64,000 nt of DNA from Phycisphaeraceae bacterium (GTDB taxonomy: Bacteria > Planctomycetota > Phycisphaerae > Phycisphaerales > Phycisphaeraceae). The DNA lies in NCBI GenBank assembly GCA_963674705.1, contig OY771506.1:3168001-3232000 (forward strand), written 5' to 3'. Every line of letters starts with the position of its first letter. The stretch's first letter is position 1. Made by a program: the position numbers. Positions 27,001 through 30,000 of this stretch are shown here, in pieces.

Positions 27001-30000
27001 ACCCCGCGCAGGCATGTCCAGGATGTACATGTCCTCCAGGCGGAAGTCCGGTGCAAAGTGGGGCTGGTTGTTTTTGATCGGTGTGGCATTGGTGTCATTG
27101 TGGATGTTTGGCGTCTTCTCGGGCGGTGATTCCGGGGCAGGCACGGAACAAGGGGGGATAAGCCCGGCCAGTGCCAACGCCGATCCGGGCGCGTCAGGTG
27201 GGATGGCTCTGGATCCAGCCGAAGCCGACTCGCGCCGCCCCCAATCCGTAAATGAACTACCGCCTGCCAGCAGCAATCCGACGCAAGCCTCAGAGCCAGT
27301 CACGTTGACTATCGGTGTGGGAGAAACCCGCAACGCCACGACCACAACTTCTCAACCGCCAAGACAGTCGGTTGCTTCCCCGAACACGTCGGATCAATCC
27401 AACCGGTCGACGACACGCACTTCAAGCAACGCCGGCACCGAACTGAATCGCGGCATGAACCTGATCCGTGAAGGCCGGCTCGTTCAAGGCCGGCGCGTTC
27501 TAAGCCAACTGCTGACCGCTGATAGCGGGAGCCTCTCGGCGCTCGATGCCCAGACGGTTCGCGACACGTTAGCCAGCGTCAACAAGCAACTGGTCTTTTC
27601 CGATGAAGTGCTGCCCGGCGATCCGCTGGCCGAGTCCTACGTCGTGCAACGCGGTGACTACCTTTCGCGGATCGCGCCGAAGTATGGCGTTCCTTATCAG
27701 TTCATCGAGTTGATCAACAACACCCCGGCCGAACGGCTTCAGGCCGGCAAGGCGATCAAGCTGATCAATGGGCCTTTTAATTTACGTATCAGTAAACGTG
27801 ACTTCCGGATGGATGTTTATGTCAATGATAAAGACGGCACGCCGTTGTATATCCGAAGCTTCACTGTAGGTCTTGGTGAAGCGGATTCCACACCGATGGG
27901 ATCATTCGTTATTGCACCCGGTTCGAAGGTGGAAAATCCTTCTTGGCGCAACCCACGCACGGGTGAATTTTTCGGGCGTGACGATCCGAAGAATCCGATC
28001 GGTGAATACTGGCTTGCATTAAAAGGAACCGACCCGCAGTCTGAATCGCTTAGTGGTTACGGCATTCACGGCACGATCGATCCGGACTCCATCGGACGCG
28101 AAGCCTCGATGGGATGTGTCCGTATGAGCGACAAGGATATTAAACTTATTTACAATATGCTTGAGCCCGGCAAGAGCACCGTGCAGATCACCTGGTGATG
28201 AGGTTGTCGCCGACATTAGATCAAGAGCTATGGTGATTATAAAAATGTCAGGCTGGTTAAACTGGGTTATTTAAGGCCGTTAATCCTGATTACTCAGTAG
28301 TTTCCGGTCGGCGAAAAGAGGCTAAAAACAGCAAGAAATTGCCCGCAAACGGTTGCTTTACGGCACCGCAGGTTATATATTAATAATGCAGATCGCGGAG
28401 GGTGAACGGAGGAGGAGAAACCACCGCCCACCTTAGCCGAGAGTGTCGTGTCTGAAAAGACACGTTTATTTTCGTGCTATCGCTGACTGCTGCACCACTG
28501 CTTGGAGGGGAATCCGTATGGTAGTGGTGTATTCACACGGCCCAAAACCGTGTGCAACAGGATTCCGTGATACAAGAGCCTGGGTATCTAAGCCCGAGGT
28601 TCGTATCCCGAAATAAGCTTTCTCCCCTCCGTGGTGACCGGGCGCGATGCATCGCCCCGGCCGCCTTTTTTTATGCGCCGACCACACTCATTCCCGAAGC
28701 GCTTTGTTGATGTAGGTATATACCCTTAGGTGCGCAATAGGTGCATATTTGGATTTGTGGAAATAACAACAATTCAACGGCAAGCTTAATCGCCCATCAG
28801 CACAAGTTCGTTTCGGATCGCCCGCAGCACCTGCAGCTGCTCAGACGACCACGCGGTTGGGGATGGCGTTGGGGATGGCTCATCATCATACCTGTCGTCA
28901 CCTAAGCCGGCGGATTTGGTCGCTTTGAGTTTGACCATGATCCGGTCACGCAACGCCCAGGCGTCGGCGACGCCCTCGACACGTCCCTGATTGAGCGCGG
29001 CTTGTGATTGGTCCTGGCCGCCACCCGAGCCGGCGGTTTCTACGATCAGGTCAGCGATACCGAAGTGGCGTTGGAGCGGGCCCTGGACGACCTTGACGTT
29101 CTGAACGTTTTCAAACGTGAAAGTCATTTCGTGGATGATCCAGATGCCCCGGCGGATACGCAGGCTGCGGTCACTCATCACGTACCACGTCGTGTCGTAC
29201 TTCAGATGAACCGCGACATAGGCGACGATGTCCGGCAAGACAGCCAAGGCCAACGCCGGTATCGCCAGCAGTATGCCCGCCACTGGCACCGCTATGGTTA
29301 ACACCAGCCAGCCGATGAAGATCGCGATGTCAATAATGAGTAGCCCGATCCAGAACCAGAGCTTCAGATACTTCAAAAAACCTATTGCGGGTTTGAACGC
29401 GTCCGGTTCTTCCCCGGGCTCGGTCGGCAGGGTGGGGGGCGTTTGAGGCACACGGAACCAGTTGGACAGAATCTGCCAGGTCCCGGTGTACAAAAACTCC
29501 GCCGCACGTTCGGTCTGTTTTTCAAGCGCTGCCATCGGTCACCTCCCCACTTTGACGTTGTGACCGCATGGCTTTGACCTGCACCAGGATTTCACGCAAC
29601 AGTTCAAGTGCTTCATCCCGGCCGGATTCGGCATGTTGTTCGGTTGTGGTTTCAGATTCAGCGGATTGTTCTGCGGTGGTTACCCCTCGGCTGCCGCGCA
29701 TTTTTGCATAGAGGTAATCCCGCAGGCCCTGCGGGTCGCCGATGCCTTCGATCGCCATCTGTGCGCCGGATGAACCCGATGCGGTCTGCACCGAAACCGT
29801 CGCCAGGCCAAGCTGGCGTTGTATAATGCCGCGGGAAACATGGATGTCCTGGATACGCCGATATGTCAGGAATATCTCCCGTCTGAACAGCACGCCCCAC
29901 GACATGGTGATGCCATCATCATCGAACTTGTATCGCAGTGTGTGGTATCTGAAGATCAACGGCAGGATGAAAAAGGGAAAACCAACGACCGTTAACAGCG

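Follow-up and report, generated by a model that had tools for sequence, protein, structure and literature searches.

The 64,000-nucleotide stretch of a Phycisphaeraceae genome analysed here (the window) contains a genuine, previously undescribed non-coding RNA gene of 285 bases at 28388–28672 on the plus strand (positions given without a contig prefix are those of the window). The gene is a duplicate of a purine-loop RNA joined to the seed and terminator of a small RNA (sRNA) that occurs throughout the family. This sponge-plus-seed anatomy is well supported. We propose, with a probability of roughly 45%, that the RNA acts both as a sponge for the family-wide sRNA and as a precursor of it, folding first, being cut and then blocking ribosome-binding sites. 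Three elements of this model are predictions, namely the latch, the cut and the regulon of PEP-CTERM genes.

Location, distribution and boundaries of the RNA gene

The gene lies between a LysM and YkuD L,D-transpeptidase (LDT) gene (26981–28198, plus strand) and a convergent bPH_2 gene (28786–29535, minus strand). Both neighbours, assigned by Pfam, agree with an initial annotation of the locus, and the sequence, the purine sites and the seed were all found where that annotation had placed them. The same LDT gene stands upstream in all 12 other copies tested. The downstream gene varies among genomes, and the bPH_2 gene is therefore not regarded as part of the element. Relatives of the neighbouring protein belong to Phycisphaeraceae or Phycisphaerales records.

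A DNA search of 143 other genomes of the family returned full copies in nine of the ten other genomes of the genus and in the single genome of the sister genus g20, the same distribution as previously given, together with three further matches (E values of 0.003–0.005) that span the terminator only. Two additional full copies were obtained from metagenomes, among three matches. In 151 genomes of the order, the long RNA was not found beyond genus g1; three weak matches at this level (E values of 0.001–0.009) resemble coding DNA and were rejected. Viral contigs yielded no match to the sponge and one to the seed.

The RNA is preceded by a predicted sigma-70-type promoter (28353–28381, plus strand; –35 TTGCTT, a spacing of 17 bp and –10 TATATT), and each of the 11 copies examined has boxes of the form TTG-N15–19-TA...T located 11–15 nt upstream of its purine sites. 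An intrinsic terminator (28633–28672, plus strand) was assigned from the alignment of the copies. The gene had been described as promoter-led and terminator-ended; the boxes in all 11 copies bear out the promoter, although a strict consensus scan flagged neither promoter nor terminator. The terminator is invariant, as had been noted, and since none of its 13 pairs ever varies it contributes no covariation. The same strict scan detected no terminator in the interval from the LDT stop codon to the RNA.

No open reading frame is common to 12 copies, and no Rfam model matches at E ≤ 1, the region 27500–29500 giving only three chance matches with E values of 6–10; on both counts our results agree with the initial annotation. 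Two further identities were considered and rejected on the grounds that neither model matches the RNA gene: tmRNA, which is encoded elsewhere at C1:4163111, and 6S RNA, the candidate for which sits at C1:3994574. The latter (L009:1501–1619, minus strand, equivalent to C1:3994574–3994692) is a likely 6S RNA that scores 36 bits against an Rfam cut-off of 46.4. In another part of the genome, 30 tRNA genes lie in a 12-kb array, all on the same strand (C1:622400–634800, minus strand); two tRNA-Sec calls fall outside it.

The seed and the family-wide free sRNA

The anti-SD-like seed CUUUCUCCCCUCCG (28618–28631, plus strand) is shared with a free sRNA (C1:4073584–4073597, minus strand) and with the 3' UTRs of htpX and hsp20, which together with the long RNA account for the four copies of the seed in this genome. 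The free sRNA has a length of about 95 nt (L162:2047–2141, minus strand, equivalent to C1:4073546–4073640). The seed 13-mer is present in 127 of 144 genomes of the family, compared with three matches for a reversed control. The loci read were in 27 of 30 cases a terminator-ended unit of about 95 nt in which a variable 5' part is followed by the seed and then by a conserved terminator, and the free sRNA is mostly located behind a ROK kinase gene. A promoter pattern was detected at 27 of 45 free-sRNA loci and at none of 45 reversed controls. Upstream of this promoter, 13 of the 45 loci contain a 9-mer, which we take to be DnaA-box-like, and nine others contain a TGTGAA motif. Six loci with the free sRNA or its purine-loop counterpart described below gave no Rfam match at E ≤ 1.

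Across the phylum, the seed 14-mer occurs in 27 of 401 genomes, including five of five in Phycisphaeraceae and three of three in the sister family f3, and in none of six genomes of family f2. The matches outside the family and f3 are not of the free-sRNA type and are read as chance. A genome of genus g17 (L339) that lacks the exact seed carries, upstream of a similar terminator, a version that differs by one letter; some apparent absences of the seed are therefore variants.

In this genome the exact seed stands directly before the terminators of htpX, which encodes an M48 peptidase (C1:234308, minus strand), and hsp20 (C1:5104651, plus strand), which suggests that these copies are 3' UTR-derived heat-shock siblings of the sRNA. 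Three relatives share the htpX copy; among the genomes read, only the nearest one shares the hsp20 copy. The seed is also found after a PEP-CTERM gene in L128, and a variant of it follows an HDOD gene at C1:1706099. In the single viral match (L394:601–660), a hairpin that looks like a terminator and resembles that of the free sRNA stands after the seed. Neither Hfq nor SpoVG was found in this genome, which is 96.6% complete; genes for RNase E/G and RNase III are present.

The 5' domain and its stand-alone paralogue

The 5' sponge-like domain (28388–28533, plus strand) is a paralogue of a stand-alone RNA of about 150 nt at C1:1321645–1321800 (L132:1566–1722, plus strand). This short RNA was found with a profile of 11 long copies (nhmmer, E value of 3e-4) and was recovered by a covariance-model search (E value of 7e-4). 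It possesses a promoter, the same RCAG start and the same three purine sites as the long RNA, and a terminator, lacks the seed, and is present in ten of the ten other genomes of the genus (11 of 11 with this one) and in g20. In a joint alignment of 21 sequences, the two RNAs align over the first 146 nt of the long RNA. A search for the sponge-like double site outside the clade returned four matches in other genera, none of which is a sponge-like RNA.

The predicted fold is common to both RNAs: helix P1 closes the domain, site 2 is presented by the loop of hairpin P2, and a variable hairpin separates P2 from hairpin P4, which carries site 3 at its tip. P1a and P1b show changes from G–C to A–U both between copies and between the paralogues. 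Site 1 (28395–28406, plus strand) is, in the open fold, mostly taken up by the 5' strands of P1b and P2, and is the partner of the seed in the closed fold of seven of ten copies. Site 2 (28407–28420, plus strand) is displayed in the apical loop of P2, pairs with the seed in the minimum-energy fold of this genome and resembles the ribosome-binding sites of PEP-CTERM genes. The cores of site 2 (GGAGGAGGAG) and site 3 (GGAGGGGAA) are invariant while the surrounding stems drift. The earlier statement that all three sites are invariant has to be corrected for site 1, which differs in four genomes (this one, a near twin and two others), one of which has lost its complement.

Hairpin P4 (28492–28530, plus strand, with site 3 at 28503–28513) corresponds to the terminator of the short paralogue, and its U-run has decayed in the long RNA. 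This decay suggests that the long RNA arose by read-through fusion. The spacer that leads from P4 to the seed (28534–28609, plus strand) contains two predicted hairpins, P5 (28534–28554) and P6 (28567–28609).

Complementarity of the purine sites to the seed

Perfect complements to the seed reach 7–9 nt in the long RNA and 9–12 nt in the short RNA, compared with 4–6 nt for the 16S tail. Shuffled sequences matched the count of three separate 7-mer sites in none of 1500 cases for three of the four RNAs tested and in 18 of 1500 for the fourth. When ranked by duplex energy, single sites take positions 120–1434 among 13037 candidate sites in the genome; because they are not outstanding individually, the case for a sponge rests on their clustering, their display in loops and their conservation. 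The predicted net binding of the free sRNA by the sponge-like RNAs is –13 to –18 kcal/mol, and binding of the seed to site 3 in trans, calculated for the full RNA, nets about –13 kcal/mol. Site 1 is mostly helix, and its predicted binding is weak once the cost of opening is included.

The proposal that the other sites trap the free sRNA therefore fits sites 2 and 3, which are displayed, but not site 1, which is largely a helix strand. The RNA exposes conserved sites that complement the seed of another, separately encoded sRNA. A reading as sponge plus seed is favoured by the presence of a free sRNA with the same seed throughout the family and of a seedless paralogue of the 5' half in the same genomes; the binding itself is a prediction. 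The short RNA is likely to be a sponge of the free sRNA.

A second seed variant matching site 1, 2 or 3 perfectly was sought and rejected, the only such matches being the antisense strand of the RNA itself and one PEP-CTERM leader. Site 1 shows two extensions of one base each: in the long RNA (28395–28399) its match to the free sRNA is longer by a G–C pair, and in the short RNA its match to the seed of the long RNA is longer by an A–U pair. As these letters are also part of helix P1b, the extensions may mean nothing. A repeated intergenic element composed of a G-run followed by AGAAAGCC, with examples at C1:2806188, 3015694, 3019997, 3021712 and 5326100, ranks with the genome's best complements of the seed.

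Predicted folds, masking of the seed and covariation

The RNA gene has a folding z-score of –6.09, and none of 200 shuffles folded as well. The initial annotation had the seed paired to the third site. This helix is seen only in the RNAalifold consensus, whereas partition functions of single copies place 0.0 seed nucleotides on site 3 in ten of ten cases; as modelled here, it is an artefact of consensus folding. The partition functions instead assign the seed to site 1 in seven of the ten copies and to site 2 in two, including this genome, and leave it mostly free in one. The closed fold is lower in energy in all ten copies, with one of them (G044) barely latched at 1.4 kcal/mol. The calculated cost of opening the seed is 6.6–13.2 kcal/mol for 11 of the 12 full RNAs and 0.2–2.9 kcal/mol for the 3' module alone. 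Prefixes of up to 235 nt are predicted to fold open, and the predicted barrier to closing is 12–21 kcal/mol in five copies. The idea of a self-masked switch is thus retained in part: 11 of 12 copies are predicted to mask their seed at equilibrium, with site 1 or 2 as the partner and site 3 staying free. Such masking is an equilibrium prediction that implies neither selection for it nor its occurrence in cells. Once a seed is joined to its own decoys, such a latch arises inevitably as a by-product.

The seed helix had been reported as invariant and devoid of covariation support, and we reach the same result: the seed and the sites are nearly invariant, and neither the cis nor the trans helix covaries. 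The reported consensus of 66 pairs, 13 of them with two-sided changes, and a covariation term of –0.81 was not reproduced in full: covariation was sparser in our rerun, which gave 62 pairs, nine two-sided changes and a term of +0.33. In the open fold, five of 48 pairs change on both sides, which was equalled in one of 500 shuffles, although three of the five reflect one row shifted by a column. Across both paralogues, 97% of cells in this fold are paired.

A candidate processing site

A candidate RNase E/G cut of the RN|WUU type is located after 28618 (28617–28621, plus strand), at the 5' edge of the conserved 3' module. In the part of the source available, this motif was defined in Salmonella, where it depends on Hfq (PMC5222698). 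The seed is preceded by AAG in 12 of 12 copies of the long RNA, and GC precedes the UUU of the seed at 42 of 45 free-sRNA loci. One wastewater metatranscriptome contains a 210-nt contig that spans both halves of the RNA (28410–28618, with seven differences), and a second, more distant contig from the same run has a loose end that, by our reading, reaches the equivalent of 28618. The two contigs derive from a single run at a depth of about 3 in which DNA is not excluded, contigs show neither RNA ends nor strand, and the same contig ends would result if priming were inefficient where the RNA is paired. The genes flanking the RNA are almost uncovered in that run (X1), which proves nothing.

PEP-CTERM ribosome-binding sites as candidate targets

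Targets were surveyed on rough gene calls (4163 genes), of which 371, roughly 9%, encode a PEP-CTERM-like tail. An extended complement of the seed lies at the ribosome-binding site of 49 of 219 PEP-CTERM genes versus 31 of 1535 other SD-bearing genes (p = 2e-26) and is found in nine of 416 secreted non-PEP genes; the 49 matches fall into 35 sequence families. The true seed gives an odds ratio of 5.4; none of the 40 permuted extensions reaches this value (mean 2.4, maximum 5.1), nor does the 16S tail (1.5). Among sampled PEP-CTERM loci, the seed complement was found in six of 21 from the clade, two of 26 from other seed-bearing genera and nine of 34 from genomes without the exact seed, with p = 0.19 for the clade versus seedless genomes. 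PEP-CTERM targeting as a family-wide rule is not supported, as the signal does not follow the seed. On these sequence counts the signal is limited to the clade, is not independent and is partly that of a purine-rich spacer. A family search for perfect complements at ribosome-binding sites gave no recurring conserved target in the 30 loci read.

Proposed mechanism and alternative explanations

In the proposed sponge-and-precursor model, the 5' domain (P1–P4) is predicted to fold first and to leave the seed free. The RNA is then predicted to relax to a fold 6–13 kcal/mol lower in which the seed lies on site 1 or 2, with site 3 still able to bind the free sRNA. RNase E/G would cut just upstream of the seed. 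A cut made before closing would yield an sRNA of about 54 nt and a 5' sponge; if closing came before the cut, the seed would stay neutral. The seed would block ribosome-binding sites without Hfq, in the clade notably those of PEP-CTERM surface-protein mRNAs. In its most elaborate form the model becomes a timer set by folding against cleavage, in which the RNA absorbs the sRNA and then either frees or swallows a further copy, allowing Hfq-free gating of dozens of the approximately 370 PEP-CTERM proteins; we consider this extension unlikely.

It is conceivable, if somewhat unlikely, that the RNA is a dual RNA similar to RsaI with no working latch, in which the open fold persists, the loops bind the sRNA, the seed binds mRNAs independently and self-pairing is a by-product. 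The conserved part of the structure is indeed the open fold, with its 97% of paired cells and the changes from G–C to A–U in P1a and P1b; closing faces barriers of 12–21 kcal/mol; G044 has hardly any latch; the site paired with the seed in the closed fold alternates between 1 and 2; and the domains of RsaI are described as working independently in the available part of that study (10.1101/278127). The lower energy of the closed fold in ten of ten copies argues for a latch, as does the observation that the sites of the long RNA are all shorter matches than those of the short RNA, which could be tuning of the cis helix. A different role for the 5' domain, as mere scaffold in a sibling precursor of the sRNA or in a 3' UTR of the LDT mRNA comparable to those of htpX and hsp20, is very unlikely: the seed and terminator do recur behind those two genes, the strict scan shows no terminator separating the LDT stop codon from the RNA, and the linkage to LDT is constant, but promoter boxes of its own precede the RNA in 11 of 11 copies, and the cores of sites 2 and 3 are invariant amid drifting stems.

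Two further readings dispense with the sRNA as the ligand of the purine loops. These could be GGA decoys for CsrA, perhaps for one of the two csrA paralogues that lie away from the flagellar cluster, with the match to the seed arising from shared mimicry of mRNA leaders. CsrA-binding RNAs of the CsrB/RsmZ type carry several ANGGA motifs in loops. The genome has three csrA genes, the long RNA contains seven GGA and the short RNA ten, with GGA in the loops of P2 and P4, and GGAGGA is the top 6-mer of PEP-CTERM leaders; yet each RNA has a single ANGGA, placed in a stem, and no CANGGANG. Outside GGA, the conserved letters of the loops fit the seed, fliW adjoins one csrA, and decoys for CsrA leave the attached seed unexplained, which makes this explanation quite unlikely. 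Finally, pairing of the 5' and 3' parts over an SD-like sequence, together with a 32-codon reading frame after site 3 in this genome, would suit the mRNA of a type I toxin or another small protein with its Shine–Dalgarno sequence masked by its own 3' end. Only five of 12 copies have the ATG, however, the lengths of the reading frames vary and the distance from site 3 to the seed falls in all three frames. With no conserved small reading frame behind the masked SD, this interpretation is largely refuted and highly improbable.

Comparison with known RNAs

The initial annotation announced a new RNA class. This claim is not sustained, as S. aureus RsaI already joins a sponge, a seed and proposed masking (10.1101/278127, available part). 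In RsaI (RsaOG), as described there, G-tracts bind C-rich sRNAs, a CU-rich region binds mRNAs and a masking pseudoknot has been proposed (10.1101/278127). The RNA described here resembles RsaI in combining a G-rich sRNA-binding domain and a pyrimidine-rich seed in one molecule, a likeness of anatomy only. It differs in that its seed is that of the trapped sRNA and that each half is also encoded by a gene of its own in the same genome. The two RNAs are not related in sequence, and no Rfam model matches.

The accessible portion of work on Caulobacter SisA–D (alpha-r8) describes a widely conserved sRNA beside a metabolic gene, its siblings and a sponge, CrfA, with G/A-rich stem-loops (PMC12559287). 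The circuit described here shares with it a single-stranded anti-SD pyrimidine core before the terminator, siblings and a sponge (PMC12559287, same portion). The Caulobacter sRNAs are Hfq-dependent and have another core, and in that portion of the text no sibling is fused to a sponge (PMC12559287). Membership of alpha-r8 was rejected: its 10-mer core UUUCCUCCCU, from Alphaproteobacteria with Hfq, differs, and here the relatives are planctomycete and Hfq was not found.

B. subtilis RoxS and FsrA are similar in that the G-rich sites of the sponge RosA pair with their C-rich seeds, whereas RosA, as far as the part of PMC8216469 available describes it, has no seed of its own and is unrelated in sequence. 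ArcZ and RprA likewise have a long precursor with a conserved 3' seed–terminator part of about 50 nt and RN|WUU at the boundary (PMC5222698, available part), and CJnc190 has a self-paired precursor that is activated by processing (PMC8687705, available part); cleavage in the present RNA is a candidate only. In contrast to the function proposed here, the leaders of these three are not described as sponges in the same parts of PMC5222698 and PMC8687705, and Hfq was not found here. Judged by sequence, the RNA gene belongs to none of RsaI, SisA–D/CrfA, RoxS/RosA, ArcZ and CJnc190.

Implications

A literature search that did not extend to subscription papers found no sRNAs described for Phycisphaera and nothing on these RNAs in Planctomycetes, and the papers it found that name both PEP-CTERM and sRNAs do not, by their titles, concern this topic. 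The RNAs reported here constitute three undescribed families: the seed sRNA, which spans the whole family and its sister family, a clade-specific sponge and the fusion of the two. The free sRNA offers the easiest entry, because it is expected in cultured members of the family. If the proposed origin is true, the long RNA would show, in a form that can still be seen, how a regulator can arise when read-through fuses a sponge to the seed of its target. It also provides a testable handle on the control of large PEP-CTERM repertoires in planctomycetes that lack Hfq.
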